Below are positions 7,532-56,961 of a stretch of 64,000 bases of DNA, piece by piece. This stretch comes from an uncultured Candidatus Saccharibacteria bacterium (GTDB lineage: Bacteria > Patescibacteriota > Minisyncoccia > UBA6257). The stretch is from the NCBI GenBank assembly GCA_964479005.1, contig CAYZJA010000001.1:160001-224000 (forward strand), read 5' to 3'. Position numbers and translations under genes: made by a program. The notes beneath the pieces are model-generated. The model worked only from the letters and a program-made list of their open reading frames with translations, was not told the DNA's origin and ran no database searches. Within the stretch, counting starts at the first letter, position 1. Each line of letters starts with the position of its first letter.

Positions 7532-7581
7532 CTATTAAATCGTCAATTAATTGATGATTTTTTTATTTTAAAAATAAATTG

Positions 7582-7590
7582 TGGTATAAT
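7582..7590 (+). promoter_or_regulatory. extended -10 element TGGTATAAT upstream of the large surface-protein gene
   Basis: TGnTATAAT lies 31 nt upstream of ATG 7621. The same TGGTATAAT recurs at 32071 and 45367 upstream of other genes. Confidence 0.35.
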
Positions 7591-7620
7591 TATTTAATAA
7601 TATTAAAATGTTATAAAAAG

Positions 7621-10600: not shown

Positions 10601-11244
10601 ACCCTGACACTTCTCATATTAAAGACAGTACTGTGAATGCTAATAATGGCACAAAAAAAGCAGCAAATGAACCGGTAGAAGCAGACGCTAAAATAGCCAA
10701 AGGGCAAAGTTTTGACGGAGCGGATGATTATGTGGATGCTCCTATTCCCAACCTAATTGATTACACTTATGAAGCGTGGTTTTATACTCGAAGTTTTGTT
10801 AATGGTAATGCTAATGATGGTACGGGCACTTATTTTATAGATAGACAAATTGGAGGTAACTCATTGGTTTCTCTAAAGGCTATTAGTGGAAATTTCGCAC
10901 ATCAGTATAGAGATAATGCTGGTGCAGGTCTTGGAGCAGTTCAAGGTGGCGCAATTCAGCTAGATACTTGGCAGCATGTTGTTTGGGGAAGGGAGGAAGG
11001 AATAGGGTTTTTCATTTATGTTGATACTATCAAAAATAGCGTTGCTGATACTCTTGGTGCTTTGACTCCCGACTCACCAAGAATTGGAGCACATCAAGGT
11101 TTAGTAATTTTTTTAAACGGTCTCATCGATGAAATTCGTATATCCAATATTGCACGTTCTTCAACCTGGATTTCTACAGAATACAATAATCAGTCATCAC
11201 CTAGTTCTTTTTACACAGTGGGAAACCAAGAAGAGAGTTACTAA
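7621..11244 (+). CDS. large secreted surface protein: signal peptide, three tandem ~125-aa beta-rich repeats, Cys-rich module, C-terminal LamG/concanavalin-A-like lectin domain
   Basis: ATG 7621 gives a signal peptide 'MSFNRSIKISVVFLVIFAWVLNSFPLKA' (the track start 7579 is upstream of the promoter -10). Three repeats 'FW(I)xSSVNT..GDLQFExDD..DLASP....PALT..TW..V.L...R..V.S.G...T.D.GA' occur at aa ~175/320/450. A Cys-rich segment carries 'QFHADPT'. The C-terminus 'GQSFDGADDYVDAP...YEAWFYTRSF...IDEIRISN' matches the LamG_3 pattern. Confidence 0.75.
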   Translation: MSFNRSIKISVVFLVIFAWVLNSFPLKAADGSGTNVVDPITATASATDKTFDFTFTAAETMDSGEISIAVPSGWSAPQDISTTVGYTTAASTGMTADVLTALDTHTGWSTGSNIAISADGADYQEGSYSISADIAVGAQAGEKWYFNEPGAKDFGSATKMIFWIKSSVNTNAGDLQFEVDDSADLASPEETVNIPALTVDTWTEVTISLGAARSSVLSYGIKYTVDIGAATVKIDDIRAMFDDADATTSWTQSGSGKITISSDAAIKKQGTASIKAAFLPQAKPLDKYFWSSATPRSFGSYARVSFWIYSSKATEADDLKWENDNSTGLASPEDTIGLPALAATTWTYLQVTLGATRTSVLSHGIHQVIDLGAHNEYVDAMAVQVNAAESTTNWTKTSPMVLSTDTTVYHENAASLKNIVAVTAGTGDEWWYNLGAADDWSSYTNVGFWIRSTVNTSGGNLQFEYDDNTDLASPIASLDIGALTANTWSYQNLTLTDTRTTINSYGFKYTTDVGAVIINADDILLGPGEPSFSGSGPWDINVRILALANTETITVTYGDNAGSGGGVTVTSATGDATFTTKSRISDSGTLTNIASSPVVTVGTALVVDNVQLNGQAAIDLIENTTKSVSATANISHPTDCNLITNVTSKIYRSGVTNNKDCTSDNNDCYSVASCSKTSCVETEAVYTCTINMQFHADPTDEDAEYWRAWIEATDGSLTNSNYSPVDAPDVNTLRALNTTATINYGTLDPGQNSTSTNQQITVTNTGNDAIDIRLYGIDMTWNGNTIDTANQEYSLSPFTYGSGNYLKEAPSYDDVDANLPKPTESPSNSSDIFYWGLGIPSPMPSGGPYQGTNTFEAINDQGVLGWYNPSWGYRVKVTVLASEVDADLTDYPVYVDLSNLPAGFHTNVNQTDARDIRVTKYNGTLEVPREVVFYDSATDTGELHFKGNVDDGTNTDFYIYYGNGGASDYAVDAEFGAENVWNANAKMVQHMKDDPDTSHIKDSTVNANNGTKKAANEPVEADAKIAKGQSFDGADDYVDAPIPNLIDYTYEAWFYTRSFVNGNANDGTGTYFIDRQIGGNSLVSLKAISGNFAHQYRDNAGAGLGAVQGGAIQLDTWQHVVWGREEGIGFFIYVDTIKNSVADTLGALTPDSPRIGAHQGLVIFLNGLIDEIRISNIARSSTWISTEYNNQSSPSSFYTVGNQEESY

Positions 11245-11337
11245 AGTGAAAGTGCTTGTCCATAAATATTGACATTGTTTTCTAAATAAATTATATGTTA
11301 TAATAAATAAACAAAACTATGACTAATTCCATATCTT

Positions 11338-11391
<54 letters not shown>

Positions 11392-11394
11392 ATC

Positions 11395-11421
11395 GCGGTT
11401 TTTCAGAAAAACCCTTTTTTT
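11395..11421 (+). terminator. rho-independent terminator-like hairpin
   Basis: GGTTTTT-cag-AAAAACC stem followed by a CTTTTTTT run. Confidence 0.55.
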
Positions 11422-11506
11422 GTTGGTTCAGTCTATAATACTTAACTTAGGCTGGACTTTTTTATTTGTTAATAAAAATTAAATTTTAAAAATAAAATTA
11501 AAAAAT

Positions 11507-13243
11507 ATGCCTAAAATAATAAAAAAATCTATTCCTTGGTTTTTAATTGTAAGTTTAACTCTTGCAACAGTATTAACTTTTAACTTTATGAGTTCAAGAG
11601 TTGAAGCTGATTCAGCAGATACTTCAGTAAGTGTAGGTAATACCACACCAACTTTTAATAGTGGTTATGAGCCTCATGAAGACATAGCTTCAGATGGTAC
11701 GACTCCGACAAATGTTGGTAGTGATGTAACTTTTAAAGCAACAGCAACTGACGCTAATAGTGATGATTGGAAGCTTTTGATTTGCGACAGTCCTGGTACA
11801 ACCGGTGTGACTTGTACTGGTACTGTAATTTGTAATACTGCTGTTGCAGTAAGTTCTGATACAGAAGCTACTTGTAGTTATACTGCGCTTATAGGTGATA
11901 ATCAATCAATTGATTGGTATGGTTATGCTTGTGATTCAACAGGATGTTCTGACGAGGATCACAAAGTAGATGCTTCTGGTCCTCCATTTAAAGTTAATCA
12001 TAGTCCAGCATTTACTGTTTATGCAGATGATGGACCTAAAGGACCTAACGCTACTATTACCTGGACTACCACAGCTTCTGACACAGATGATGATACAGAG
12101 CAAGATACGATAAGCTTATATGTTTGTAAAGCAGATGATTTTACCGGTTCTGCGTGCGGAGTTGGAGGACAGTGGTGTTCATCACTTAACGATGCTGATG
12201 GTGATCCAACTTGTAACGAAACCACTCCGAGACCAGATGGTGATTATGCTGCTTATGGTTATATAGTTGATAGCCATAGTTTAGTTTCTGTAGGTACAGC
12301 AGAAGGAACTGATTCTTCACCAACAGTTACTAATAGCACTCCTTCAATTACTGATTCTTCAATTAATTTATTAGACACAGATGGAAGCGGCAATTTAGAA
12401 TTAATTGATGAGCAAGCTGAAACTGCTAATTTTACAGTTACTTTTATAGTAAATGATGAGAATAGTTGTGAAAATATTACGTCCGGAGATGAAATATCTT
12501 CAGCTTTTATTAATGTAAGGATGTCAGAAAAACCAACAGGCGACTGTGATATTACTGGTGAATATAATGCTAATGATTGTTATCCAGATGATTATACTGA
12601 ATGGAATCCTGTTTGCGCTGCTTCTTCAACAGTTGATGCTTGTAATGGTGATACTGATACTACTGTTGGTTGGGCATGTACTTTCCCTTTACAATATCAT
12701 GCTGATCCAACAGTTACTGGAACTCCAAAGGCAGCTTATACCTGGATAGCAGCTGTTCAAGCTGAAGATGATCAGGCAGCTAATACGGGTCTAATAGATT
12801 CTTCAACTGGCAGCAATGATATTGATAAATTTATGTCTTATAATTTAACTACTGCCTCAATTGCTTATGGTACAGTAGCTCCTGATGATTACAGCTTAGA
12901 GCAAACCACAATTATTGAGGCTACTGGTAATGTTGGATTAGATGAGAATCTTTTGGGGAGTCTGTTATGTAATGATTATGAAACTTGTGCAGGTGATGAT
13001 GATATCGCAATTGCTGAACAACATTATAATCTAAGCCAAGGCGCAGGCTGGGCAGCTGGAACAGAACTTACTGATAGTTTGGTTGAATCTGAGCTTAATT
13101 GTACGAAGACTACTATTACTGGAACTCCAGAAACAAAAAGTACTTATTGGTATTTGCATATACCTCTAGGTCAAGGTGTAGATAGTTATACTGGTGAGAA
13201 TACTATTGAAGGCAAGGTTGATAATGAAACTTACGAAACATAA
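11507..13243 (+). CDS. secreted Thr/Asp/Cys-rich surface protein, paralogous in part to the Cys-rich module of the upstream large protein
   Basis: Signal peptide 'MPKIIKKSIPWFLIVSLTLATVLTFNFMSSRVEA'. It shares the 'C..NDCY...C....C...CTF..QYHADPT...AAYTWIAA' module with 7621..11244. Confidence 0.7.
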   Translation: MPKIIKKSIPWFLIVSLTLATVLTFNFMSSRVEADSADTSVSVGNTTPTFNSGYEPHEDIASDGTTPTNVGSDVTFKATATDANSDDWKLLICDSPGTTGVTCTGTVICNTAVAVSSDTEATCSYTALIGDNQSIDWYGYACDSTGCSDEDHKVDASGPPFKVNHSPAFTVYADDGPKGPNATITWTTTASDTDDDTEQDTISLYVCKADDFTGSACGVGGQWCSSLNDADGDPTCNETTPRPDGDYAAYGYIVDSHSLVSVGTAEGTDSSPTVTNSTPSITDSSINLLDTDGSGNLELIDEQAETANFTVTFIVNDENSCENITSGDEISSAFINVRMSEKPTGDCDITGEYNANDCYPDDYTEWNPVCAASSTVDACNGDTDTTVGWACTFPLQYHADPTVTGTPKAAYTWIAAVQAEDDQAANTGLIDSSTGSNDIDKFMSYNLTTASIAYGTVAPDDYSLEQTTIIEATGNVGLDENLLGSLLCNDYETCAGDDDIAIAEQHYNLSQGAGWAAGTELTDSLVESELNCTKTTITGTPETKSTYWYLHIPLGQGVDSYTGENTIEGKVDNETYET

Positions 13244-13291
13244 TATCTCTGTGTGATAGCAAAGAAATTATTTTAGATAGAGTAAAAACTC

Positions 13292-14227
13292 ATGGTTTTA
13301 AAGAGGATAATTTTATTTATAGTTTTGTGTTCACTATTTAGTTTTAGTTTGATTAATGTTGTTCAAGCTGGCTTTGGAATTTCTCCGCCATATATTAACA
13401 ATGAAAATCTTAGTCAGGGTTCTTATTATGAAAAGAAAATCACATTAGTAAGAGGCGATCCAATTGAAGATTGGAAAGTGGAAATAATTACCAATGTTCC
13501 CGGAGCTGATGATTGGATTTCAGTTAACAAAGGAAAAGAATTTATTATGCCAAAAGGAGCCCAGCAGGTTCCTATTGTTTTTAGTATTGATGTTCCAAAA
13601 AATGCTAAATTTGGAAGATATACAGGAAGTATTAGAGTAAAAACCGCGCCAGTAAAAGATCCAGAAGAAGGAACAATATCAATTCTTTTAGGAGGACAAA
13701 TTGACGTTGATTTAAATATTCAAAAAGAAATTTTTGATTTTAATGTAAGAGGAATAAAAGCTTCTGATTTAGAAGAAGGAGAAAAGCGATTGATATTTTA
13801 TTTTCCGGGAATAATAAAATTCTCAATGCAAATTGAAAATCTTGGGAATATAAAAGCTGCTCCAAGCAAAGTGCTTCTTGAGATTTATGATGAAAAAGAA
13901 AACGAACTTTTGGAAACGATTCAAACCACTAAGATGAATAAAATAAATCCATTTGAAATAGATTGGGTTATTGCCGAACTTAAAACTAAGTTAAAAGCCG
14001 GCAGTTATTACGCGCAATATCAAATTTTTAAAAAAGATGAAGTGGTAAGTCAAGGAAAAATTCATTTGAGCATTTTATCAAAAGGTGCCATTGCTGATTA
14101 TCAAAGGGCAACAATTTTTGATATAGGAGTAAAAGATAAATTAATTATTTTATTTGGAATTTTAGCTAGTATTGGATTAGTGATTTTTGTTATTCCAAAA
14201 ATTATTAGAACTTTTCGAAAAAAATAA
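13292..14227 (+). CDS. secreted protein with C-terminal transmembrane anchor (hypothetical)
   Basis: N-terminal signal 'LFIVLCSLFSFSLINVVQA' and C-terminal TM 'LIILFGILASIGLVIFVIPKIIRTFRKK'. Confidence 0.6.
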   Translation: MVLKRIILFIVLCSLFSFSLINVVQAGFGISPPYINNENLSQGSYYEKKITLVRGDPIEDWKVEIITNVPGADDWISVNKGKEFIMPKGAQQVPIVFSIDVPKNAKFGRYTGSIRVKTAPVKDPEEGTISILLGGQIDVDLNIQKEIFDFNVRGIKASDLEEGEKRLIFYFPGIIKFSMQIENLGNIKAAPSKVLLEIYDEKENELLETIQTTKMNKINPFEIDWVIAELKTKLKAGSYYAQYQIFKKDEVVSQGKIHLSILSKGAIADYQRATIFDIGVKDKLIILFGILASIGLVIFVIPKIIRTFRKK

Positions 14228-14248
14228 TTTGAAGTCGAGAAAAGTATA

Positions 14249-15160
14249 ATGTTCAGAAATTCAAATCGTTTTGGAATTTTTATTATTATTTTAATTTTTT
14301 TTGGATTTTTATCCTCAATCTTTTTATTTCCAAAAAAAACATTTTCAGAAATGCTTTCTACTTCTGTACAGGTACAGATAGTAACTACAACCATCGGTGG
14401 CGGAGGTGGGGGTGGGGGATATATTCCACCTTTGCCACCAGAAACAAAAGTTATTTTTGAAGGAAGGGCTTATCCTTTAAGTAAAGTTAATATTCTTAAA
14501 GATGGTCAGTTAGCTGTTAGCACTATTTCTGGTCCAGATGCAAAATTTTATGTTTCAATAGAAGGCTTATCTTCTGGAAACTATTTGTTTGCAGTTTATA
14601 GCGAGGATAGTCAGGGAAGACGTTCTGTATTATTCACTTTTCCGGTTTTTATTACTCAAGGAGTCACCACCAAGATAAGTGGTATTTTTATTGCGCCAAC
14701 TATTGATGTAGATAAATTGGAAGTCAAAAAAGGGGAAGTAATTAAAATTTTTGGCCAAACAGTTCCTAATATCGATGTTGCCGTTATCATTAATTCCGAA
14801 GAAGAAATTTATGGGAAAACAAAATCAGACGAAATAGGCGCTTATCTTTATAATTTAGATACTATAGAAGTAGAAATGGGAAATCATTTGGCAAAATCAA
14901 GGGCTACTATTGAAGAAGAAATTAGTCCTTTATCGCAAGCAATAAGTTTTAAGGTAGGAACAAAAACAGTTTTAAAAGAAACTGTAAAAATACCAGAAAA
15001 AGGGGATTTAAATAATGATAAAAGGGTAAATTTGGTTGATTTTTCCATTCTTGCTTATTGGTATCAAAGGCCATCACCTTCAGCAACAGTTGATTTTAAC
15101 AATGATGGAAAAGTAAACTTAGTGGATTTTAGTATAATGGCATACTACTGGACAGGTTAA
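14249..15160 (+). CDS. membrane-anchored protein with poly-Gly linker and C-terminal type-I dockerin domain
   Basis: Two dockerin Ca-binding repeats 'GDLNNDKRVNLVDFSILAYWY' and 'VDFNNDGKVNLVDFSIMAYYW' (D-x-N-x-D-G-x-V-N-x-x-D pattern). N-terminal TM. 'GGGGGGGG' run at aa 50-57. Confidence 0.7.
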   Translation: MFRNSNRFGIFIIILIFFGFLSSIFLFPKKTFSEMLSTSVQVQIVTTTIGGGGGGGGYIPPLPPETKVIFEGRAYPLSKVNILKDGQLAVSTISGPDAKFYVSIEGLSSGNYLFAVYSEDSQGRRSVLFTFPVFITQGVTTKISGIFIAPTIDVDKLEVKKGEVIKIFGQTVPNIDVAVIINSEEEIYGKTKSDEIGAYLYNLDTIEVEMGNHLAKSRATIEEEISPLSQAISFKVGTKTVLKETVKIPEKGDLNNDKRVNLVDFSILAYWYQRPSPSATVDFNNDGKVNLVDFSIMAYYWTG

Positions 15161-15200
15161 AATTTTCAATTTTTAATTTCCAATTTTTAAATAAATTCTA

Positions 15201-16172
15201 ATGACAAAAACTCAAAAACTAATTTTTATTCTTCTATTTTCTACTTTCTGCTTTCTATTTTTTAGTTCTTCTTCTACTTTAGCCGCGGAGTTATATTTGG
15301 AGAATTCCGAGGATAATTATTACGTTGATGAAACTTTTATTACTGATATAAGGATTAATGTTGAAAATAATGAAAGCATTAATGCTATTGAAGGTTATTT
15401 AAAATTTCCAAGTAATATTTTGGAAGTAAAAGATTTTAGCACTGGTAATTCGATACTTACTTTTATTGAAGAGCCAAAAATTAATAAAGAAGAAGGTTTG
15501 ATTTCTTTTGTTGGAATTATTCCTGGTGGATATAGTGGAAGGATTCCTGGTGATCCTGGACAAAGTAATCTTTTAGGAAAAATAATTTTTTATTCTATTT
15601 TTTCTGGCACAGCAGAGATTATTTTTGAAGATAGATCACAAGCATTATTAAGCGATGGGGAGGGAACACCAGCTAAGTTAATTAATAAAGGAGTAACTAT
15701 TGAGATCGTAACTAAACCCTTCGACTACGCTCAGGGCAAGGATGAATGGCAGGAACAATTAGAAAAAGACAAAATTCCTCCAGAAGATTTTAAACCAGAA
15801 ATTATTAAAATTGATGATAAATATTATTTAGCTTTTACTACTAAAGATAAAGATTCTGGTATTGATCATTATGAAGTTTTAGAAAAGAATTTTTGGACAA
15901 ATATAAGTAAATTATTAGGAAGAGAAAAATGGATAGTCGCAGAAAGTCCTTATTTATTAAATGGGCAATCATTAAGTAATAGGATAGAAATAAAAACAAT
16001 AGATAAAGCGGGCAATGAGAGAATTGTTAAATTACCAGCTACATATTATTTGCCTTGGTATAAAAATTACTTTATTTGGGTTATACTTATAATAAGTATT
16101 TTTTATGTGATATGGAGAATAATCGCGAAACAGAAAAAAAACAATACGCGAAACCCCGAAGAAAAGCCTTAG
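15201..16172 (+). CDS. cohesin-like domain protein, signal peptide, C-terminal TM anchor
   Basis: The signal peptide and beta-sandwich pattern '...IRINVENNESINAIEGYLKFPSNILEV...ISFVGI...GTAEIIFED' are consistent with a cohesin fold. C-terminal TM 'FIWVILIISIFYVIWRII'. Confidence 0.5.
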   Translation: MTKTQKLIFILLFSTFCFLFFSSSSTLAAELYLENSEDNYYVDETFITDIRINVENNESINAIEGYLKFPSNILEVKDFSTGNSILTFIEEPKINKEEGLISFVGIIPGGYSGRIPGDPGQSNLLGKIIFYSIFSGTAEIIFEDRSQALLSDGEGTPAKLINKGVTIEIVTKPFDYAQGKDEWQEQLEKDKIPPEDFKPEIIKIDDKYYLAFTTKDKDSGIDHYEVLEKNFWTNISKLLGREKWIVAESPYLLNGQSLSNRIEIKTIDKAGNERIVKLPATYYLPWYKNYFIWVILIISIFYVIWRIIAKQKKNNTRNPEEKP

Positions 16173-17929
16173 GCTTCCTACGGGGCAGGCAGACGCGAAA
16201 TTTCTTAATTTGGTTTAGCGTCGGTTTAGCGTTTTTCCTTGGCGTTGGTTTAACGCTGCCTGTGGTAGCGCAAGCGGCAAGTCTATATTTTTATCCTTCA
16301 TCTGGTTCTTATTCCATTGGTCAAACTCTTACTGACTCTGTCTATGTTTCCAGTTCTGATCAGGCAATCAACGCGGCTTCAGGAATTATTTCCTTTCCAC
16401 AGAATAAAATACAGGTTGTATCACTTTCAAAAACAGGTTCTATAATGAGTCTTTGGGTTCAAGAACCATCTTTTTCTAATACTATTGGGACAATCAACTT
16501 TGAAGGTATTATATTAAATCCTGGGTTTATCGGAAATAATGGCAAGATTATTGATATTATTTTTAAATCAAAGGCGTCAGGAATTACACCGTTAAGTTTT
16601 TTTTCAGCGTCAGTTTTGGCTAATGATGGTAAAGGGACAAATATTTTAACAAGCTCTGGGAGCGCTAAATATAATATTATAATCACTACAACTACAGCAA
16701 CCTCGCCAAGTATACCAACTGGGGATGCAAGAACGCCAAGCGCTGTAATTATTTCTTCTGAAACTCATTCCGATTCTAATAAGTGGTATAGTTCTGCAAC
16801 AGCTGAACTTTCTTGGCCTTTAACTGATGATATTACGGCTACTCGTCTTCTTATTAGCAGAAGCTCAAAAGCTTATCCTACTGTGATTTATACACCTGCG
16901 ATTTCTTCTAAAACAATCACCAATTTAGGTGAGGGTATTTGGTATTTTTATGTACAGCTCAGAAATAAATATGGGTGGGGTGATGTTGCTCATTTTCGTT
17001 TACAGATTGATAATACTCCTCCAGGGCCATTAGAAGTTGAAATAGACAATGAAGGAGACCCTACTAATCCTCAGCCCTTGCTTTGCTTTAAAACAAGTGA
17101 TTTTTTATCAGGAATTGATTTTTATGAAATAAAGATTGGAGAGATCTATAATCTCCAGATTTCAATTAATGAAATAAAGGATAATATTTATCGTTTACCG
17201 CTTTGTCCTCCAGGCGAATATTCATTAATAGTAAAAGCCGTAGATAAAGTAGGAAAATACAGTTCAGTAACAAAAAAATTAAATATAGCATCAATAGACG
17301 TTCCAATTATTAGTGACTACTCAAGAATATTATCTAAAAATGATTACTTAGTAATTCTGGGTTATGCAAGATTAAATGATATTGTAAAGTTGTTTATTAA
17401 AAGTGAAAATAAAAAAGTTGCAAGTTATATTGCTAAACGCGATAATGAAAAATGGAGTTATAAAGCAGAAAAACCTTTGCAAGCAGGGATTTATGCAATT
17501 TGGGCACAAGCAGTTGATTCTCGTGGAGCTAAAAGTAATTTTTCAGAAAAAGTCGAAATTTCCGTAGATTCTCCAGCATTTCTTAGATTTGGATTTGGCA
17601 ATTTTATAGTTAGTTATATTGATATTATAATTATTTTTATTATTCTTATTGTTCTTACAGCATTGGCTTGGGTCTATTATGCAAGAATAAAATTAGTGCA
17701 GACAAATCTTCTTAAAGAAGATATTACACAGACTCAGAAAAACTTATACGAAGCTTTTGATCTTTTGAGAAGAGAAGTTACAAGAGAAATAGCCAAACTT
17801 GATAATAATGATCTTTTATCAGAGAGAGAAGAAGCAGTTAATGAAGAATTGAAAAAAGCTATTAGAAAGTCAGAAGAGTTAATTACTGAAGAAATTAAAG
17901 ATATAAAAGAAAAAATAGACAAATCGTAA
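16112..17929 (+). CDS. cohesin-like domain protein with extended Ig-like region, C-terminal TM anchor and coiled-coil tail
   Basis: Signal/TM 'FLIWFSVGLAFFLGVGLTLPVVAQAA' and a cohesin-like segment 'INAASGIISFPQNKIQVVSL...GTINFEGII...ITPLSF'. The start is ambiguous (16076 or 16112) and overlaps the upstream gene. TM 'IIIFIILIVLTALAWVYYA'. Confidence 0.5.
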   Translation: MENNRETEKKQYAKPRRKALGFLRGRQTRNFLIWFSVGLAFFLGVGLTLPVVAQAASLYFYPSSGSYSIGQTLTDSVYVSSSDQAINAASGIISFPQNKIQVVSLSKTGSIMSLWVQEPSFSNTIGTINFEGIILNPGFIGNNGKIIDIIFKSKASGITPLSFFSASVLANDGKGTNILTSSGSAKYNIIITTTTATSPSIPTGDARTPSAVIISSETHSDSNKWYSSATAELSWPLTDDITATRLLISRSSKAYPTVIYTPAISSKTITNLGEGIWYFYVQLRNKYGWGDVAHFRLQIDNTPPGPLEVEIDNEGDPTNPQPLLCFKTSDFLSGIDFYEIKIGEIYNLQISINEIKDNIYRLPLCPPGEYSLIVKAVDKVGKYSSVTKKLNIASIDVPIISDYSRILSKNDYLVILGYARLNDIVKLFIKSENKKVASYIAKRDNEKWSYKAEKPLQAGIYAIWAQAVDSRGAKSNFSEKVEISVDSPAFLRFGFGNFIVSYIDIIIIFIILIVLTALAWVYYARIKLVQTNLLKEDITQTQKNLYEAFDLLRREVTREIAKLDNNDLLSEREEAVNEELKKAIRKSEELITEEIKDIKEKIDKS

Positions 17930-17987: not shown

Positions 17988-19307
17988 ATGAATTACAAAA
18001 AGTTATTAATTATTATTGGTATTTTTATAGTCACCATTTTATTGGGGGCTTTTGTTTATCCTGATGGATTAAAAGAAAGGGGGATTGAACTTCCCAGTTT
18101 TTTTGATAAGTCCTTTAGTTTTGGGTTAGATGTTTCTGGTGGAACACTTTTGCTTTATGAAGCTGATTTAAATAATATTGAAACTTCTGATCATGATTCG
18201 GCAATGGATGGTTTGAGAGATGTAATAGAAAGGCGTATAAATTATTCAGGTGTTAGAGAACCGCGTGTGGCAATAAATAAAAGCGGAGAAAAATGGCGTT
18301 TAATAGTGGAATTAGCTGGAATTAAAGATATTCAAGAAGCAATAAAAATGATTGGGGAAACTCCTTATTTAGAATTTAAAGAAATTCGCACAGAAGAAGA
18401 AGCAAAAAGCATTTTAACATTACAAGAAGAAGAATCAAATAAAGAAGAACCCGATTTAAAAATTATGCGGATAGATCCATATTTTAAACAAACTTCTTTA
18501 ACTGGAAAATATTTAAAAAGAGCAAATTTGGGGTTTGACCAAAATTCTTTACCTATCATTAATCTTCAATTTAATGATGAGGGCGCAAAGATTTTTGCCG
18601 CTTTAACAAAAAAGAACATTGGGCAACCATTAGCAATTTATTTAGATAATTATCCAATTAGTATTCCTGTAGTGCGGGAAGAAATTCCTTCAGGTAAAGC
18701 CCAGATTTCTGGAAAATTCACTTTACCTGAAGCAAAGGAGTTAGTGACAAGATTAAATCAAGGCGCTTTACCTGTTCCAATTAATTTAATTTCCCAGCAA
18801 TCTGTTGGCGCTGTTTTAGGGGAAGAATCAATTGAGAAGATAGCCAAAGCGGCTCTTTTAGGATTTGTTTTAGTGCTTATATTTATGATTTTGATTTATC
18901 GTATGCCGGGATTTTTAGCCTCAATTTCTTTGATAATTTATGTTATTTTAACAATGAGTATTTTTAAGGCTCTACCAGTAACCCTTACTTTAGCTGGTAT
19001 TACTGGGTTTATTCTCTCTGTTGGTATGGCTGTAGATGCTAATATCTTAATTTTTGAGCATGCAAAAGAAGAAATTAAAAAAAATAAACCAATGAGGATT
19101 TCAATGGAAGACGGTTTTCAAAGGTCATGGCCAGCTATTCGAGATTCTAACATTGCTACAATAATTTCTGCTGTAATCCTTTATTATTTTACATCAAGTA
19201 TGATAAGAGGATTTTCTGTTACATTGGCAATTGGAGTAGGGGTGAGTATAATTACAGCTTTGTATGTTACAAGGATATTCTTGCAGGTACTCACGACAAA
19301 CAAATAA
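17988..19307 (+). CDS. secD: protein translocase subunit SecD
   Basis: N-terminal TM, 'GLDVSGGTLLLYEAD' and a C-terminal six-TM block typical of SecD. Confidence 0.85.
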   Translation: MNYKKLLIIIGIFIVTILLGAFVYPDGLKERGIELPSFFDKSFSFGLDVSGGTLLLYEADLNNIETSDHDSAMDGLRDVIERRINYSGVREPRVAINKSGEKWRLIVELAGIKDIQEAIKMIGETPYLEFKEIRTEEEAKSILTLQEEESNKEEPDLKIMRIDPYFKQTSLTGKYLKRANLGFDQNSLPIINLQFNDEGAKIFAALTKKNIGQPLAIYLDNYPISIPVVREEIPSGKAQISGKFTLPEAKELVTRLNQGALPVPINLISQQSVGAVLGEESIEKIAKAALLGFVLVLIFMILIYRMPGFLASISLIIYVILTMSIFKALPVTLTLAGITGFILSVGMAVDANILIFEHAKEEIKKNKPMRISMEDGFQRSWPAIRDSNIATIISAVILYYFTSSMIRGFSVTLAIGVGVSIITALYVTRIFLQVLTTNK

Positions 19308-19412: not shown

Positions 19413-20303
19413 ATGGATTTTATTAATAAGCGGAAAATTTTTTACGGTTTTTCAATAGCAATGATTGTTACTTCCTTTTTGTGTCTCCTGACCTTTGGAT
19501 TTAATTGGGGGATTGATTTTACTGGTGGAAGTCTTTGGGAATTAACTACAGCAGATATTAAAAATGACACAATTAAAATTGTAAATTATTTAGAAAACCA
19601 AGAATTAGGGCAAATTAATGTTCAAACTACAAATGAAAATAGTTTAATATTACGCTTTTCTAATATTTCTGAAGAAAAACATGTCCAATTATTTAAAGGA
19701 TTACAAGAGAAACTTTCTTTAATTCAGGAAAGAAAATTTGAATCAATTGGTCCTTCCATTGGACAGGAATTGAAATCCAAGTCTATTTGGGCTGTTCTTT
19801 TAGTCTTTTTTGGAATTTTAGCATATCTTTCTTATGCTTTTCACAATTCCTCCTTCCGTATTCCGTCTTATCGTTATGGTATTTTGGCAGTTTTAGTATT
19901 AATGCATGACGCAGTGTTCATTATAGGTTTATTTTCCTTGCTGGGAAAATTAAAAGGATGGGAAGTAAATTCGGATTTTTTGGTGGCTCTATTGGTAGTA
20001 GCTGGTTATTCTGTCCATGACACAATAGTAGTTTTTGATAGAGTTAGAGAAAATATACGATTAAAAACAAAAGAAAGTTTAGCTGAAATTATTAATTTAA
20101 GCATTAATCAAACCCTTTTGCGATCTTTAAATACATCTCTTACAACAGCTTTTCCTTTAATAGCTTTATATTTTTTAGGTCCTATTTCTATTAAAATACT
20201 GGTAATAGCAATGATTAGCGGTGTAATAATAGGTACTTATTCTTCAATTTGTCTTGCTGCCCCATTATTATATGATTGGTCGCTAAGGCGAGGACGAACT
20301 TAA
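19413..20303 (+). CDS. secF: protein translocase subunit SecF
   Basis: 'GIDFTGGSLWELT' and six TM segments. Confidence 0.85.
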   Translation: MDFINKRKIFYGFSIAMIVTSFLCLLTFGFNWGIDFTGGSLWELTTADIKNDTIKIVNYLENQELGQINVQTTNENSLILRFSNISEEKHVQLFKGLQEKLSLIQERKFESIGPSIGQELKSKSIWAVLLVFFGILAYLSYAFHNSSFRIPSYRYGILAVLVLMHDAVFIIGLFSLLGKLKGWEVNSDFLVALLVVAGYSVHDTIVVFDRVRENIRLKTKESLAEIINLSINQTLLRSLNTSLTTAFPLIALYFLGPISIKILVIAMISGVIIGTYSSICLAAPLLYDWSLRRGRT

Positions 20304-20316: not shown

Positions 20317-21462
20317 TTGACTTTTTGTTTGTTTTTTGCTTTAATTAATAATATGAGTATAAACAATTTTAACTTAAGTAAAGAGAGTCCACATCAATTG
20401 GCTCTTAAAATCATTGCTATTTTACCTTCCCGCACGCAGGATATTGTTAAGAAAAGATTTGGTTTAGATAATAACGATCCTAAAACATTAGAAGCAGTTG
20501 GTCAGGATTATAAGATTACGAGGGAGAGAATTAGGCAAATTATAGAGGTAGCTTTAAAAACTGTTAAAAAACAGCCAGTTTTAAAAATGGCTGATGTTTT
20601 TATAAAGCAAGCTGAACAGATTTTAAAGCAAAGCGGAGGAGTAGACGAGAACGTGAGGTTCCTTACAAAAATAGATAAGCAGTTTAAAGAATCAAAAGGG
20701 AATCTGTCCGCAATTAGATTTTTATTGGCATTAAATCCTGATTTTTCATTTGAAGAAGAAAATGATTTATACAATAGTTTTTGGCATTTTTCCAGGATTT
20801 CCAAAAATAAAATTTATAAAAATATTAAAAATATAGAAGGACTTTTTAAGAAAAAACAATCAACTTATTTGATGAACGAAATATTGACTTTGGTTAAAAA
20901 AAATATTTCCTCAAATATTAATAAGGAAGAGCTAAGGGCATATTTAGAAATATCCAAGAAAGTTGGTATGAATCCATTTGGCGAGTATGGCCTATTTGAT
21001 TGGATGGAGATAGATCCATCTGGCGCTCGCGATAGGGCATATTTAATAATGAAACATTCTAAAAAGCCTTTACATTTTTCTGATATTACAAAACGCCTTA
21101 ATGAGTGTAATGAAATAACTATTCCAGCATCTGTTGCCTCTCATTCTTGGCAAAAGAAAGTATGTATTCAAACAGTGCATAATGAATTAATCCGTGATTC
21201 CCGTTTTGTTCTTATTGGAAGGGGAATTTATGCGTTAGGAGAGTGGGGTTATAAACCTGGAAAAATAGTCAATGTTATTAAGGATATTTTAAAGGAAGCC
21301 GGAAAACCGTTAAAACAGGAAGCAATCATTAAGGAAGTTAAAAAACGCAGAATGGCAAAAGATAATACTATTATTTTGAATCTTCATAATAAGAAATATT
21401 TTAAAAAATTGCCGAATAAATATTATAGCTTAGTTAGGTCCTATAAAATATTAGAGGTTTAA
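20317..21462 (+). CDS. DNA-binding protein with N-terminal sigma-70 region-4-like HTH and C-terminal HARE-HTH-like domain
   Basis: '[46 protein letters not shown]' matches the sigma-70 region 4.2 pattern. The C-terminal 'KPLHFSDITKRL...DSRFVLIGRGIYALGEWGY' resembles the RpoE-delta/HARE-HTH 'DGRFVxLGRGxWGLxEW'. Confidence 0.55.
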   Translation: MTFCLFFALINNMSINNFNLSKESPHQLALKIIAILPSRTQDIVKKRFGLDNNDPKTLEAVGQDYKITRERIRQIIEVALKTVKKQPVLKMADVFIKQAEQILKQSGGVDENVRFLTKIDKQFKESKGNLSAIRFLLALNPDFSFEEENDLYNSFWHFSRISKNKIYKNIKNIEGLFKKKQSTYLMNEILTLVKKNISSNINKEELRAYLEISKKVGMNPFGEYGLFDWMEIDPSGARDRAYLIMKHSKKPLHFSDITKRLNECNEITIPASVASHSWQKKVCIQTVHNELIRDSRFVLIGRGIYALGEWGYKPGKIVNVIKDILKEAGKPLKQEAIIKEVKKRRMAKDNTIILNLHNKKYFKKLPNKYYSLVRSYKILEV

Positions 21463-22655
21463 TGTTAGGAGAGATTATTCGTGAATTTTGGTGGATATTA
21501 GCCCTTATTGTTTTGGGGAAGTTTTTTATTGATTCAAGTAAAAAGTATGAAGAGAAAAAAAAGAAAGAAAAAGAAGAGATAAAAGATTGGGTTACTCTAC
21601 AAGCAAAGATTAATCGTGAGATATTACAAACTCCTAAAGCAATGGAGCAAGTATTTAATGGTTTTCATGTTATAGAAAAGGGATATATTTGCTTAGAGCT
21701 GGTTGGTATGGACAGAGAGATATATTTTATTATTCGCGCACCTAAAGAATATAAAAATTTAGTAGAATCACAATTTTACGCGCAATATCCAGAAATAGAA
21801 ATTAAAGAGATTGATGATTATTTTTCACGTCTTCCAGCTCATTTACCAAATAAGGATTTTGATTTATGGGGAACCGAGATCATTTTAGAAAAAGAAAATT
21901 ATTATCCTATTAAAACTTATTCTTATTTTGAGGAATTAAAAGAAGAAAAAAGAATTGATCCAATATCAAGTTTTGCAGAAAGTATTGCCAAGCTTCAAAA
22001 ATCTGAATGGTTTATTTTAGAGATTCTTATTAAACCTCTTTCTGATAAAGATGAGGAAAAATTTATAAATGAAGGGAAAAAACAGATTGACAGTATGTTA
22101 GGTAAAAAAAAGGGAAAAGAAATTACTTGGACAGATTGGGTTGGAGCTTTTTTTAAAAATCTTTTAGTAGGACTAGTTGAACCTCCAGTTTGGCCTACAA
22201 AAGAAGAAAAGAAAAATGGGGCGCCTTTAGTCATTTCATCTGGTGAAAAGGATATAATTAAATCAATTGAAAATAAAATAAGCCGATTATCATTTAATAC
22301 AAACATAAGATTGATTTATATTTCCCCAAAAAAGATTTTTAACGAATCTAATATTTCCGCTTTTATGGCGTTTTTGAAACAATTTAATTCAAAAGATTTA
22401 AATGGTTTTAAGATCAACAAAGACGCTTCTACAATTCTTAAATCTAAATTTTTGCAAAACAGAAGATTATTTTTAAAAAAGATGGATTTTTATCAAAAGT
22501 GTTTAAAGCGAACAAAAACGCAAGATGCAATGATTTTAAACACAGAAGAATTGGCGACTATTTATCATTTCCCGGCATTAAAGGTTGTAACCCCTACATT
22601 GGTCAGGGTTTTGAGTAAAAAAGGCGAACCGCCAGCAGGGTTGCCAGTAGAATAA
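21462..22655 (+). CDS. membrane-anchored hypothetical protein, translationally coupled to flanking genes
   Basis: N-terminal TM 'FWWILALIVLGKFFI' and a Lys/Glu-rich linker. TAATG overlap with the upstream gene and a 4-nt gap to the downstream ATPase. Confidence 0.5.
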   Translation: MLGEIIREFWWILALIVLGKFFIDSSKKYEEKKKKEKEEIKDWVTLQAKINREILQTPKAMEQVFNGFHVIEKGYICLELVGMDREIYFIIRAPKEYKNLVESQFYAQYPEIEIKEIDDYFSRLPAHLPNKDFDLWGTEIILEKENYYPIKTYSYFEELKEEKRIDPISSFAESIAKLQKSEWFILEILIKPLSDKDEEKFINEGKKQIDSMLGKKKGKEITWTDWVGAFFKNLLVGLVEPPVWPTKEEKKNGAPLVISSGEKDIIKSIENKISRLSFNTNIRLIYISPKKIFNESNISAFMAFLKQFNSKDLNGFKINKDASTILKSKFLQNRRLFLKKMDFYQKCLKRTKTQDAMILNTEELATIYHFPALKVVTPTLVRVLSKKGEPPAGLPVE

Positions 22656-22659
22656 ATTT

Positions 22660-24210
22660 ATGGATATAAATCATATTGGAATAACAAATTTTAGAGATGA
22701 ATTTCAGCGATTTGGCATTAAAGCCGATGATAGGCGTCGGCATATATATTTTGTTGGAAAGAGTGGAGTAGGTAAGACTACAATGATGGAGAATATGATT
22801 ATTCAGGATATTAATAATGACAAAGGTGTATGTGTTATTGATCCTCACGGAGAATTAATAAACAGAGTTCTTTACTTTATTCCTGAAAACAGAATAAAAG
22901 ATGTGATTTATTTTAATCCTGGCGATGTTGAATGGCCAATTGCTTTTAATGTTATTGAAGAAGTTCCAGTAGAATATCGCCATTTGGTTGTAGCGGGTTT
23001 AATGGGAGTCTTTAAAAAAATCTGGCCAGATGTATGGTCTGCCAGAATGGAATATATCTTAAATAATGCTTTACTGGCTCTTTTAGAATATCCTGGAGCA
23101 ACGCTTTTAGCTGTAAACAGATTGCTTTCTGACGAAGATTTTCGTAAAGCAGTAATGAAAAAGGTAACAGATCCAATAGTTAAATCTTTTTGGGAAAGAG
23201 AGTTTGCTCGTTATAATGCCCGCTTTGCGACAGAAGCAATTGCTCCAATTCAAAATAAAGTTGGGCAATTTATTTCAAACCCTTTAATTAGAAATATTAT
23301 TGGACAGAAAGAATCAAAAATTGATATCAGGAAAATAATGGATGATGGTAAGATTCTTTTAGCTAATTTGTCAAAAGGAATGGTTGGTGAGGATAATTCT
23401 AGTCTTTTGGGAGCTCTCTTGGTTACAAAAATACAATTAGCTGCAATGAGCCGTATAGATGTTCCTGAAGAGAAAAGAAAGGATTTTTATTTGTACGTAG
23501 ATGAGTTTCAAAATTTTTCCACTGAATCATTTGCTTCTATTTTTGCCGAAGCTAGAAAGTATCGTTTAAACTTAGCTTTAGCTCATCAATATATAGCTCA
23601 ACTTAATGAGCAAGTTAAAGATTCTATTTTTGGTAATATAGGAACTTTGATTTCTTTTAGATTGGGCCCTGAAGACGCGGAATTACTGGAAAAATATTTT
23701 GCTCCAGAATTTTCAAAAGAAGATTTAATTAATCTTCCAAATTATAATTTTTATATAAAATTGATGATTGATGGTGTTTTGTCCAAAAGTTTTTCAGCGA
23801 TGAATATACCACCTTCTAGTTTGCCAGAGAACTCGTTTATACAAGAAATAATTCAGTATTCACGTGAGCATTATGCTGCTTTGCGGCAAGAAATTGAAAA
23901 GAATATCGCGCATTGGGAGTTATTGGATTTTTCTCCAAGCTTCAAGGCAGGGGATCTTAGAAGCAGAAAAGTTGGCGTTAAAGAAGGTTGGGAAGCTGTA
24001 TGTTCTCAATGTGGAAAAAGAATTATTGTACCTTTTCAACCAGATCCTGCCAGGCCTGTTTATTGTGATGAATGTTTTAAAGAAATACGAAGGCAAAGAG
24101 GAAAAGATTTAACACATGCAAATTCTGTTCAGCATACTCAATCTAAAATTAAACCAAAAAAAGAAGAAATAAAGGAGGTAATTAAAAATATTTTCCGTCA
24201 GGATACTTAA
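22660..24210 (+). CDS. TraD/VirD4 (type IV coupling protein)-like FtsK/HerA-superfamily P-loop ATPase with C-terminal zinc ribbon
   Basis: Walker A 'FVGKSGVGKTT', then 'VIDPHGE' (cf. VirD4 DPKGE), Walker B 'YLYVDEFQNF', C-terminal 'CSQCGKRIIVPF..PVYCDECF' CxxC..CxxC. No TM segments. Confidence 0.6.
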   Translation: MDINHIGITNFRDEFQRFGIKADDRRRHIYFVGKSGVGKTTMMENMIIQDINNDKGVCVIDPHGELINRVLYFIPENRIKDVIYFNPGDVEWPIAFNVIEEVPVEYRHLVVAGLMGVFKKIWPDVWSARMEYILNNALLALLEYPGATLLAVNRLLSDEDFRKAVMKKVTDPIVKSFWEREFARYNARFATEAIAPIQNKVGQFISNPLIRNIIGQKESKIDIRKIMDDGKILLANLSKGMVGEDNSSLLGALLVTKIQLAAMSRIDVPEEKRKDFYLYVDEFQNFSTESFASIFAEARKYRLNLALAHQYIAQLNEQVKDSIFGNIGTLISFRLGPEDAELLEKYFAPEFSKEDLINLPNYNFYIKLMIDGVLSKSFSAMNIPPSSLPENSFIQEIIQYSREHYAALRQEIEKNIAHWELLDFSPSFKAGDLRSRKVGVKEGWEAVCSQCGKRIIVPFQPDPARPVYCDECFKEIRRQRGKDLTHANSVQHTQSKIKPKKEEIKEVIKNIFRQDT

Positions 24211-27507: not shown

Positions 27508-28824
27508 ATGAAACGAATTAAAAAAAACAAAAAGAAGAAAAAAGTTAGAAAAGGAAAAGCCCGTCTTGCTAAAACTTTAGTGAGGCGAGCAAAAAAGGTA
27601 AAAGTTGTAAAAAAGAAAAGAAAAGTAAAAATCATTAAAAGAACAAGAAAAGTAAGGAAGATGAGGAAAATCAAAAAAACCGGGAAGATTAAGAATAACA
27701 AGAAGGTCAAGAATATTAAGAAAAAAAGGCAACAGCCCAAAAAAGAGAAAATACAAGAAAAGATAGGGGTATTGATTGAAAGGGGTAAATCGCGAGGATT
27801 TATTACCCAAGATGAGATCTTAAAATATTTTCCACGCATTGAAGCAGATATTAATCTTTTAGAAAAACTTTATGATGCATTAGCAGAGGTTAATATTGAA
27901 GTAGTAGAAAGTGGGGATTTATTGATACCAAAAAAAGAAGTTTCTGATAAAGAATTAAAAGATGCTTTAAAAGTTCCAAGTTCCAGGGTATTATCTGGGG
28001 CAGTTCAGTCATATCTTAGGGAGATAGGAAAAGTTTCTCTTTTAACTGCTGAGGAAGAAAGGGAATTAGCAAAAAAAGTAGATAGCGGAGATGAACAAGC
28101 AAGACGAAAGATGATTGAAGCCAATCTCCGTTTAGTGGTTTCTATTGCCAAACGTTATATCGGCCGAAGCAGAAATTTGGGCTTATTGGATTTGATTCAG
28201 GAAGGCAATATTGGTCTTTCTAAAGCAGTTGATAAATTTGATTACAAAAAAGGTTTTAAATTTTCCACTTATGCCACTTGGTGGATCAGGCAAGCGATTA
28301 CACGGGCTTTAGCTGATCAAGGACGGACGATTCGTATTCCCGTACATATGGTTGAAACAATTACCAAATATTTAAAAACAAGAAGGGCATTGGCTCAAAC
28401 ATTGGGGAGGGATCCTTTACCAGAAGAAATAGCTTCTGAAATGGGGAAAGAAGTTGAAGAAATTCTTTACCTTATGAGAATTTCTCAAAGCACTTCATCA
28501 TTAAATCAACCAGTAGGGGATGAAGATGGCGGCAGCCAGTTAGGAGATTTTATTTCAGATACGAAAGCCATAACTCCTGATAGCCATGCTGCAAGAGAAT
28601 TGTTAAAAACCGAATTAGAAAAAATTATGAGTGAATTATCTGAAAGAGAAAGAGAGATCATAAAAATGAGGTTTGGCTTGGAAGATGAAATCACCCATAC
28701 ATTAGAAGAAGTAGGAAAATCTTTTGGCGTGACTCGAGAAAGAATTAGACAGATTGAAGCTAAAACCTTAGAAAAACTTAAAGAACATTCTCAATCTAAT
28801 AGACTCAAAGAGTTTTTAAAGTAG
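27508..28824 (+). CDS. rpoD: RNA polymerase sigma factor RpoD with ~80-aa Lys-rich N-terminal extension
   Basis: Region 2.4 '[13 protein letters not shown]' and region 4 '[23 protein letters not shown]'. The N-terminal 80 aa are more than 50 percent K/R. Confidence 0.9.
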
Positions 28825-54731: not shown

Positions 54732-54739
54732 TTAAAATT

Positions 54740-54934
54740 ATGGATAATATAGATCAACTAATTGCGCAGGCTTCACAAATTTTTACTAAAGTTCTTTATG
54801 AGATAACTCATCTCACAGATCAGGTTTTTATATCTGGAATATTAGGACATTTATGGGCGTTTTTAAAAACAATAATCCAATTTATTATTCTAGCATTAGA
54901 AGCATTAGTTAGAATTTTAAAGTTTTTCGTTTAA
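54740..54934 (+). CDS. small hypothetical hydrophobic protein (64 aa)
   Basis: ORF only. It may be non-coding. Confidence 0.2.
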   Translation: MDNIDQLIAQASQIFTKVLYEITHLTDQVFISGILGHLWAFLKTIIQFIILALEALVRILKFFV

Positions 54935-54993
54935 CAAATAACAATAAAACAATTTAGCAATTTAGCAATATACTGAATTTGGGGGGAGTACTC

Positions 54994-55021
54994 TTGACAA
55001 GTCATCTAAGATGGCTATAAT
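54994..55021 (+). promoter_or_regulatory. sigma-70 promoter TTGACA-16-TATAAT
   Basis: Consensus hexamers upstream of the dif-like site and the xer gene. Confidence 0.5.
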
Positions 55022-55034
55022 TAAAGTATAATAA

Positions 55035-55062
55035 GGTTCGCATAATTATAGTTAAGCGAACA
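55035..55062. other. dif-like Xer recombination site (28 bp): GGTTCGCATAA-TTATAG-TTAAGCGAACA
   Basis: The left arm matches the E. coli dif XerC arm GGTGCGCATAA at 10 of 11 positions. There is a 6-bp spacer, and the right arm is a near-perfect inverted copy (9/11). It lies 48 nt upstream of the recombinase gene. Confidence 0.5.
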
Positions 55063-55109
55063 TCTAATATAGCTTATAATAGCCTATTATACATTGTCAC
55101 GTTAATAAC

Positions 55110-56066: not shown

Positions 56067-56129
56067 GTAAAATAAATAAAATAAGGTAGAGGTTTGTTCC
56101 CCTACCTTATAAATTCAGCTTCTATGTTT

Positions 56130-56336
56130 CTACATTTTATTTTCAATCAATCTTAGAATTCTTTTCCATTTCTCAAAATTCTTATTAATAACTTTTGAAA
56201 TTTTTTTCCAATCTTCAGGGGATGGCTCACGTATGCCCTTTTTTGGTTCCCCTAAAAAGATTTCCCCTGTTTTTGTATCACAAACAATATCATCTCCATT
56301 TTCTAATTTACCTATTTCTTCCCAATTAGCCATCAT
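56130..56336 (-). CDS. small hypothetical protein (68 aa)
   Basis: SD 'GAGGTG'. Overlaps the upstream gene by ATGA. Confidence 0.4.
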   Translation of the reverse strand: MMANWEEIGKLENGDDIVCDTKTGEIFLGEPKKGIREPSPEDWKKISKVINKNFEKWKRILRLIENKM

Positions 56337-56649: not shown

Positions 56650-56701
56650 TTATTCACTCCTCCTTTTTTTATTTATTTCAGATTTTTGAATCTCAATCTA
56701 T

Positions 56702-56899: not shown

Positions 56900-56961
56900 T
56901 ACAATCCCCTCCTTCTATATATTTTTTATATTTTTATTATTATTCAGTTTTCAATCTGCAA

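Follow-up and report, generated by a model that had tools for sequence, protein, structure and literature searches.

Patescibacteria represent a large share of bacterial diversity, dwell on other microbes and do not synthesise nucleotides, and how they obtain and move macromolecules is a question on which the locus described here bears. This locus consists of three consecutive genes, g1, g2 and g3, on a 64,000-nucleotide stretch of the contig CAYZJA010000001.1 (positions 160,001 to 224,000; hereafter, the window), the last of which encodes an ATPase related to the coupling proteins of conjugation. Canonical type IV coupling proteins (T4CPs) of the VirD4/TrwB type have a P-loop RecA-like core with an inserted all-helical domain, are recognised by family hidden Markov models (HMMs), carry a transmembrane (TM) anchor in the same polypeptide and are encoded with a relaxase or the channel of a type IV secretion system (T4SS). 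In Patescibacteria, 5713 VirD4-type T4CP homologues were reported in 2918 of 3035 genomes, with just 148 of the homologues lying near virB4 (Quinonero-Coronel et al. 2025, PMC12102498). The same work found VirB4 in 2417 Patescibacteria genomes and relaxases in only 103, described a separate, monophyletic bona fide VirB4 that is often encoded near dnaA, and considered the patescibacterial t4cp as possibly exapted (PMC12102498). The essential T4SS cluster of S. epibionticum has no recognisable coupling protein or relaxase (Wang et al. 2023, PMC10633639). The g3 protein is very probably one of these orphan VirD4-type homologues. Term searches of both papers found no mention of a DUF8128 partner, of a split or fused arrangement, of a zinc ribbon or of a neighbour with sigma region 4 and HARE-HTH domains, and, as far as we searched the literature, the trio is undescribed as a unit, though widespread in public genomes and conserved in hundreds of Patescibacteria.

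We propose, with a probability of roughly 0.55, that g2 and g3 form a chromosomally fixed, split coupling-type motor for which the DNA-binding protein g1 replaces the relaxase as adaptor. The separate parts of this proposal do not carry the same weight. We are highly confident of its architectural and evolutionary side, that is, a split motor of the VirD4/VirB4 clade with a fused ancestry in plasmids and phages, while the view of g1 as adaptor between a nucleic-acid substrate and a membrane motor is given close to, or slightly short of, even odds.

The g3 gene (22660..24210; 516 amino acids (aa); like all genes and motifs of the window placed below, on the forward strand) encodes a soluble P-loop ATPase with a helical insert (about aa 104-214), followed by a flexible low-confidence linker, a zinc ribbon and a basic tail. 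Its Pfam matches are TrwB_AAD_bind (E 2.5e-11), T4SS-DNA_transf and TraG-D_C, all over gathering thresholds, and DUF87. The Walker A motif GKSGVGKT at aa 33 (22756..22779) has G33, G36, G38 and K39 invariant in the alignment, as are D281, E282, F283 and Q284 of the Walker B region YLYVDEFQNF (23497..23517). An earlier note on this DNA, made from the sequence alone, had described a soluble ATPase of the FtsK/HerA superfamily with two coupling-protein hallmarks and a C-terminal CxxC..CxxC ribbon. We found these motifs in place (DPHGE at aa 61, VDEFQNF at aa 280, CSQC at aa 448 and CDEC at aa 469), and no hydrophobic window exceeds 1.6 on the Kyte-Doolittle scale, hence there is no TM segment. 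The ribbon is a CxxC-x17-CxxC treble clef (23986..24087) whose cysteines C448, C451, C469 and C472 are all invariant, and it scores E 1.9e-13 with zf_Tbcl_2 (PF23477) and E 4.3e-14 with TIGR04272. Zinc binding by this type of domain was shown experimentally in small proteins of Methanosarcina mazei (PMC12704099).

In fold searches, the nearest structural relatives of g3 are VirB4, DptH and TrwB/VirD4, with the VirB4 C-terminal domain as top match, and a sequence search against the PDB returned TrwB alone (E 1e-3). The protein belongs to the VirB4/VirD4/DptH branch of the FtsK-HerA superfamily. The possibility, raised in the earlier note, that the ATPase would be closest to an unrelated AAA family in a trio that is not co-conserved was not borne out, since its fold relatives are those just named and the trio is co-conserved (see below). 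On the predicted fold alone, g3 cannot be assigned to VirD4 or to VirB4. Among the NCBIfam equivalogs, its scores are far under the cutoffs for NF045973 (VirD4-like CD1115; 49.5 against 250), TIGR03743 (TraD; 45.5 against 366) and TIGR03754 (27.5 against 647), and there is a weak match to the archaeal DNA-import ATPase CedD (E 4e-5). Neither g2 nor g3 matches the Pfam families CagE_TrbE_VirB and AAA_10.

While canonical coupling proteins carry the TM anchor themselves, here it is encoded by the separate gene g2 (21462..22655; 397 aa). The g2 protein is composed of an N-terminal TM helix, a K/E-rich linker, a globular part similar to the N-terminal domain of VirB4 and a conserved flexible tail (…EELATIYHFP…KKGEPPxxLP). 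Its single TM-like helix, IIREFWWILALIVLGKFFI (21474..21530), is helical in the AlphaFold2 model and corresponds to aa 5-23, for which the 19-residue Kyte-Doolittle mean is 1.8; this is the sole window above 1.6 across the three proteins. The model, computed from 30 homologues, is confident (pLDDT 83.4, pTM 0.76). A precomputed match to PF26449 (DUF8128, a domain of unknown function) is recorded for a public protein identical to g2 and for all 120 homologues listed with it, and the family was also found on the g2 gene calls of three loci (L001, L002 and L085); our scan with Pfam and NCBIfam sets from which the PF26449 model was absent gave no match. A profile search of a 1.84-billion-protein library retrieved DUF8128 proteins in 3485 clusters (50% identity), the best 150 of which are all stand-alone proteins of 320-550 aa, and thus did not itself reveal fusions. 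We found no mention of DUF8128 in the literature searched. The earlier note had cast g2 as the supplier of the anchor that the coupling protein lacks, and this holds, as g2 has the sole TM helix and the profiles of g2 and g3 each match one half of the fused proteins. Yet the role of g2 goes beyond anchoring, since the protein is a module like the VirB4 N-terminal domain. Canonical T4CPs have no such VirB4-type fold, nor the zinc ribbon that g3 adds. Conversely, VirB4/TrwK is a single protein encoded beside VirB3, VirB6 and VirB8, whereas g2 and g3 are split and lie elsewhere, no equivalent of these three proteins being found either within the window or in the sequences flanking related loci.

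The two genes are joined in mobile elements. Fused g2+g3-like proteins of 810-913 aa are encoded by plasmids of Bacillus and of actinomycetes and by Bacillus phages. When searched with g3, a plasmid collection returned 789 records, chiefly from Bacillus, Streptomyces and haloarchaea, and tblastn retrieved gp156 of Bacillus phage G (825 aa), SPO1 gp27.4 (906 aa) and relatives. With HMMs derived from our alignments of patescibacterial g2 and g3, we showed that g2 matches the N-terminal ~320 aa of the fused proteins and g3 the C-terminal halves of the same proteins. The g2 matches have E-values of 8e-22 for phage G gp156, 6e-20 for a 31-kb Shouchella clausii plasmid and 5e-14 for the B. subtilis plasmid NRS6116_2, and are weaker for SPO1 gp27.4 (9e-9) and an Embleya plasmid (6e-7). 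Likewise, in phrog_5156 (824 profile positions), g2 matches positions 42-357 and g3 positions 408-805, and a Foldseek search of viral structures with the g2 model ranked gp156 first (E 1e-17). Fused and split versions thus have the same two modules in the same order, with the Walker motifs and the helical insert. They differ in that the patescibacterial version is in two genes, that g2 has a TM helix while the Bacillus fused versions show no obvious hydrophobic segment in their first 70 residues (inspected by eye), and that g3 has the CxxC-x17-CxxC ribbon, which had no match in the two phage copies that the scan covered.

The surroundings of the fused genes suggest what they do. On the Shouchella, B. 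subtilis and Embleya plasmids, a gene annotated as "replication-relaxation family protein" lies directly 3′ of the fused gene, and the plasmid clusters encode, besides PrgI-family, TcpD/TcpE-family and NlpC/P60 proteins, a second, large ATPase, which is VirB4-like and annotated as "ATP-binding protein". The neighbour of gp27.4 in SPO1 is gp27.3, also a Replic_Relax protein (PF13814), with an actin-like partition protein nearby, and in phage G, gp155, upstream of gp156, is a VirB4/TraG-P-loop ATPase. As the fused gene lies beside a relaxase-like gene and a separate VirB4-like ATPase is present, it occupies the coupling-protein slot, that of the second ATPase of a monoderm conjugation module; the separate ATPase also argues against the fused protein being VirB4 itself. 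By its position and annotation, we infer that the fused plasmid protein is a coupling protein. No experimental paper on this fused subclass was found in the literature searched. Whereas the fused proteins belong to mobile elements, with a Replic_Relax partner and T4SS clusters, the trio sits in a chromosomal housekeeping setting with a partner bearing sigma region 4 and HARE-HTH domains. In Patescibacteria, the relaxase and channel genes are gone from the locus, and g1 stands before g2-g3 instead.

The split pair is not confined to Patescibacteria, as it is also found on the haloarchaeal plasmid pNATPE01 of Natrinema pellirubrum (locus L088). There, in the region covered by L088 7557-11724 and 13941-18047, a 382-aa DUF8128-like protein and a 994-aa "TraM recognition domain" ATPase have two TIR-domain genes and a ComEC/Rec2 family gene within a few kilobases (kb). 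Separately, the alphaproteobacterial plasmid NZ_CP081110.1 of Sulfitobacter mediterraneus encodes a stand-alone 395-aa homologue of the g3 core (L086:8983-10170), with no zinc ribbon and no g2, among transposases and recombinases. Its 40.6% identity to g3 makes it far nearer than the Firmicute and actinomycete plasmid copies, which suggests that it was acquired by lateral transfer.

The g1 gene (20353..21462; 369 aa) encodes a soluble DNA-binding protein with a sigma region 4, a linker, a HARE-HTH and a winged-helix-like C-terminal segment; no TM-like segment was detected on the Kyte-Doolittle scale. Both domains had been proposed in the earlier note, and both are confirmed by Pfam matches over the cutoffs. 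The sigma-70 region 4 (4.1 and 4.2; 20413..20571; PF04545) scores 40.2 bits for a cutoff of 24.1 (E 2.3e-10), and a profile of 26 homologues matches region 4 of the primary sigma factors RpoD/SigA in the PDB (E 1.7e-19) over regions 4.1, 4.2 and the following helix. The likeness to primary sigma factors extends to the recognition helix, TRERIRQI, which is identical in g1 and in the RpoD homologue encoded 6 kb downstream (27508-28824). Nonetheless, neither Pfam nor NCBIfam detected a region 2 or 3 in g1 (NCBIfam sigma models cover aa ~20-98 alone, far under their cutoffs), and the protein is therefore not a sigma factor. The HARE-HTH (21037..21246; PF05066; E 8.7e-7, 29.7 bits for a cutoff of 25.9) contains the most conserved block of g1 (QTVHNELIxDxRFVLIGRGIYAL-EWGY), and the motif quoted in the earlier note, DSRFVLIGRGIYALGEWGY, is in place at aa 282. 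This domain is shared with the RNA polymerase (RNAP) delta subunit RpoE, in which, however, it is N-terminal and followed by an acidic C-terminal tail, while in g1 it is internal and the C-terminus is basic. As g1 also scores under the cutoff of the delta model TIGR04567 (32.1 bits for 42), it is not an RpoE equivalog. Beyond the HARE-HTH, a conserved C-terminal segment seen in the alignment of homologues (21259..21432; V-DVI--ILK-A-KPL--EEII--VK--R--K-NTI-LNL-NKKYF) is possibly a second winged helix; its profile found nothing significant in the PDB, where a delta subunit chain reached E 1.2. The g1 family has 6910 matches, named in their sources "sigma factor-like HTH DNA-binding protein" or "RNAP delta subunit". 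We found no description, in the literature searched, of a protein combining sigma region 4 and HARE-HTH beside a coupling-type ATPase. We also considered g1 as a degenerate member of the relaxase family and rejected this candidate, as hhalign against four Replic_Relax proteins gave a probability of 0.4%.

The three genes are tightly packed, as the earlier note had reported. The g1/g2 junction reads GTT TAA TG, one base being common to the stop codon TAA and the start codon ATG, and g2 and g3 are separated by 4 nucleotides (ATTT), so that the trio may be translationally coupled. The extent given earlier, 20317-24210, is right at its end and probably has to be revised at its start. The TTG at 20317, proposed by the open reading frame (ORF) lister, is unlikely to be the true start of g1, which we place at the ATG at 20353 because the gene calls of identical public contigs and the homologues begin there.

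That the neighbourhood is conserved, a check suggested in the earlier note, was examined in 82 loci, of which 80 were kept from a survey of one genome per GTDB species (at least 600 rows) and two come from metagenome contigs. The g2 gene lies directly upstream of g3 in 60 of the 82 loci, and 49 have the full g1-g2-g3 trio, an arrangement repeated in dozens of distantly related genomes. Median gaps are below 10 nucleotides between g2 and g3 and about 24 between g1 and g2, by coordinates based on ORF starts. Eleven loci have g2-g3 with no detected g1 (six being secF-g2-g3 loci of Uhrbacteria and Magasanikbacteria), 19 have a g3-like gene with room upstream and neither g2 nor g1 within 6 kb, and in three the g3-like gene is at a contig edge. 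Among the 42 trio loci with callable neighbours, SecF is encoded directly upstream of g1 in 25, and at least 14 other families occupy this place in the remaining 17; downstream of g3, PGK is found in 13 of the 42 and the gene is otherwise highly varied. Given these varied flanks, the trio is held together while its surroundings change. Homologues of g3 itself number over 8000, and identity stays at about 60% between named candidate phyla of the Parcubacteria/Paceibacteria type. In the related loci, we saw no gene for a relaxase or a T4SS component immediately next to the trio.

The lineages in which neither g2 nor g1 accompanies the g3-like gene encode a g3 with a long C-terminal tail (600-770 aa). 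In the two such loci that the scan covered, L039 (5971-11526) and L051 (3568-13192), a second T4CP-like ATPase of ~490-510 aa with no zinc ribbon is encoded nearby, which fits the approximately two T4CP homologues per genome reported for the phylum (PMC12102498). Treble-clef zinc-finger proteins (zf_Tbcl and zf_Tbcl_2) are also encoded nearby in L051, and Cys-rich proteins of ~585 aa lie near the g3-like gene in L039 and L038 (2854-9979). We tried the ~585-aa proteins of g2-less loci as divergent DUF8128 members and dropped them: the set is heterogeneous, matches to the g2 profile are insignificant and the L039 and L038 members are Cys-rich. A DNA-binding domain fused to g2 or g3 in g1-less lineages was also looked for, and the long tails have no recognised domain besides zinc ribbons.

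Taken as a split coupling-type motor with an adaptor, the trio would work as follows. The g2 and g3 proteins would form a hexameric motor ATPase, with g2 anchoring the g3 ring at the cytoplasmic membrane, and the disordered tail of g2 and the N-terminal hairpins of g3 would meet at the junction where the fused proteins are covalently continuous. In physical association with this motor, g1 would act as substrate adaptor in place of a relaxosome, binding DNA, possibly at -35-like sequences, and/or RNAP, and would pass a nucleic-acid or nucleoprotein substrate to the motor, which would spend ATP on moving or remodelling it at the membrane. The motor may feed a patescibacterial T4SS encoded elsewhere or act alone, and the transport may be DNA translocation or uptake. 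In either direction, the trio probably handles nucleic acid at the membrane.

Several observations weigh against this proposal. In S. epibionticum, the t4cp homologue is non-essential while the T4SS genes are essential (PMC12102498), which speaks against an obligatory coupling to the T4SS, at least in that lineage. At eight loci with room upstream, g2-g3 is found with no g1 (six of them after secF; three more are cut by a contig edge), which means that the locus can do without g1 or that g1 is encoded in another place; the 19 g3-like loci with neither g2 nor g1 point the same way. Adjacency and overlap alone are weak evidence in compact genomes with genes nearly all on a single strand. The identity of g3 across classes (~60%) is far above what is usual for coupling proteins, which hints at a different, housekeeping-type constraint. 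Finally, a sigma region 4 and a delta-like HARE-HTH are equally compatible with a general RNAP-associated factor that merely adjoins the ATPase.

The rival explanations overlap in part, each addressing different aspects of the system. The last point leads to the view, which we hold to be rather unlikely, that g2-g3 alone is the functional unit and that g1 is a general RNAP-associated or promoter-binding factor, docking on the beta-flap or at -35 elements and merely syntenic. Its N-terminus is indeed a near-perfect primary-sigma region 4, and the family is labelled in IMG as RNAP delta subunit. The six secF-g2-g3 loci also favour this view, as does the faster evolution of g1, which retains ~37-40% identity where g3 retains ~60% at comparable taxonomic distance; besides, we saw no g1 domain fused to g2 or g3, not even where g1 is lacking and g3 has a long tail. 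It is at odds with g1 lying directly upstream of g2 in 49 loci despite varied genes upstream of g1 and downstream of g3, and with the stop-start overlap in the window and the short gaps elsewhere, which fit co-translation. A different alternative keeps g1 as a sequence-recognition subunit but makes the motor a T4SS-independent housekeeping DNA pump similar to FtsK/SpoIIIE, to Streptomyces TraB or to a DNA-uptake motor. FtsK and TraB combine a membrane anchor, a motor and a winged-helix DNA reader, which is the same logic as that of the trio, and the very high conservation of g3, its housekeeping context and the CedD match would suit such a pump. It is also favoured by the wider occurrence of coupling-type homologues (2918 Patescibacteria genomes) than of VirB4 (2417; PMC12102498), although incomplete genomes could explain this excess. 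The trio lacks the defining set of FtsK/SpoIIIE traits (alpha/beta motor domains, a gamma winged helix and a match to the family HMM). Moreover, the Patescibacterium TM7x has an annotated ftsK, so that no replacement is needed there, which weakens g2/g3 as a stand-in for FtsK, and no competence genes were found in the scanned ORFs of the window. We thus consider a housekeeping pump to be unlikely. More speculative still is a Patescibacteria-specific machine that is independent of any T4SS channel, in which g1 would tether RNAP or -35 DNA to a membrane ring translocase with a zinc ribbon and of conjugative descent. We give this idea little credence; if true, nucleic acid might be moved between epibiont and host, or transcription complexes cleared or relocated at the membrane, and the trio would add a new functional class to the VirB4/VirD4 family and show sigma region 4 in a use not seen before.

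The remaining alternatives depart from nucleic acid transport. The top fold match of g3, the VirB4 C-terminal domain, together with the VirB4 N-terminal fold of g2, would fit a VirB4-like dislocase or secretion ATPase that extracts or assembles membrane or pilin proteins or exports proteins, and secF lies directly upstream in ~31 loci, g1-less ones included. On the other hand, 17 of the 42 trio loci have no secDF linkage, the fused plasmid homologues lie beside a relaxase-like gene with a separate VirB4-like ATPase present, and a DNA-binding partner and a zinc ribbon would be unexpected for a pilin dislocase. Such a role appears improbable to us. The earlier note had also mentioned defence, that is, an anti-phage or anti-plasmid module pairing a HerA/DptH-like ATPase with a DNA-sensing HARE-HTH partner. 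PADLOC does return mad8 (E 5.7e-15) and, more weakly, HerA (5.8e-9) for g3, and MzaA for g1 through region 4 only, and HARE-HTH domains are known from restriction-type proteins according to Pfam. These matches are weak or partial, however, and no partner gene of the corresponding systems (MADS, HerA-based and MZA) lies near the trio, nor any nuclease, methylase or other effector in or beside it. The flanks are housekeeping genes (secDF, ddl, dnaG and rpoD), and the near-universal, vertical-looking spread, with ~60% identity across classes, is unlike that of patchy, fast-evolving defence islands. Altogether, we now disfavour defence and regard it as very improbable.

From this analysis, the orphan T4CP of Patescibacteria gains a defined architecture, namely a split motor with a VirB4-like DUF8128 half, a zinc ribbon and a sigma region 4/HARE-HTH partner, as well as an ancestry among coupling proteins encoded beside replication-relaxation genes on monoderm plasmids and in phages. 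DUF8128 receives a structural identity, and a class of coupling proteins that keeps a VirB4-type N-terminal domain bears on how the two ATPase families diverged. Furthermore, three named proteins can now be tested, by interaction assays, DNA binding and knockouts, in the few genetically tractable Patescibacteria.

The window is a chromosome segment of low GC content (~30%) with nearly all genes on the forward strand, and its proteins have their closest named relatives in Candidatus Paceibacterota and Patescibacteria. Upstream of the trio are secD (17988-19307) and, directly before g1, secF (19413-20303). As no convincing terminator was seen in the secF-g1 interval, secD and secF are probably in one transcription unit with the trio; a scan for consensus promoters and terminators between 15.5 and 26 kb gave 57 sites for 49 expected from shuffled sequences and is uninformative on operon boundaries. 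The proximity of secDF may reflect either a functional linkage or old synteny. Downstream of g3 come ddl (a predicted D-alanine ligase), a small membrane protein, dnaG and rpoD, all four named from their translations without a domain scan. The scanned ORFs of the window include no pilus, competence, relaxase or T4SS gene, in agreement with the earlier statement that no conjugation genes are nearby, and the remainder is housekeeping-like; no second paralogue was found in the window.

Primary sigma factors normally have an acidic region 1.1 at their N-terminus; the ~90 N-terminal residues of the RpoD homologue of the window open with an extremely Lys/Arg-rich stretch. Just upstream of secDF, six large ORFs (7579-17929; 1221, 578, 311, 303, 323 and 617 aa) mostly have no Pfam match, one having a dockerin repeat. 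The last of them, of 617 aa, combines a Big_13 Ig-like domain with a hydrophobic stretch toward its C-terminal part, as judged by eye from the translation, after which comes a charged coiled tail. This run is probably a cluster of cell-surface proteins. At the other end of the window, the GC skew, positive from position 1 to ~55 kb, becomes negative or mixed, and the genes switch from almost all forward to mostly reverse. At this switch (~54000-57500) lies a tyrosine recombinase ORF (55110-56066) with a Phage_integrase domain and a SAM-like N-domain, similar to XerC/D, and these features suggest a replication terminus or dif region. Adjoining it, the ORF 57110-58303 encodes a PD-(D/E)XK nuclease with similarity to DUF2800 and DUF7376, the sole gene of mobile-element or repair character noticed in the window.

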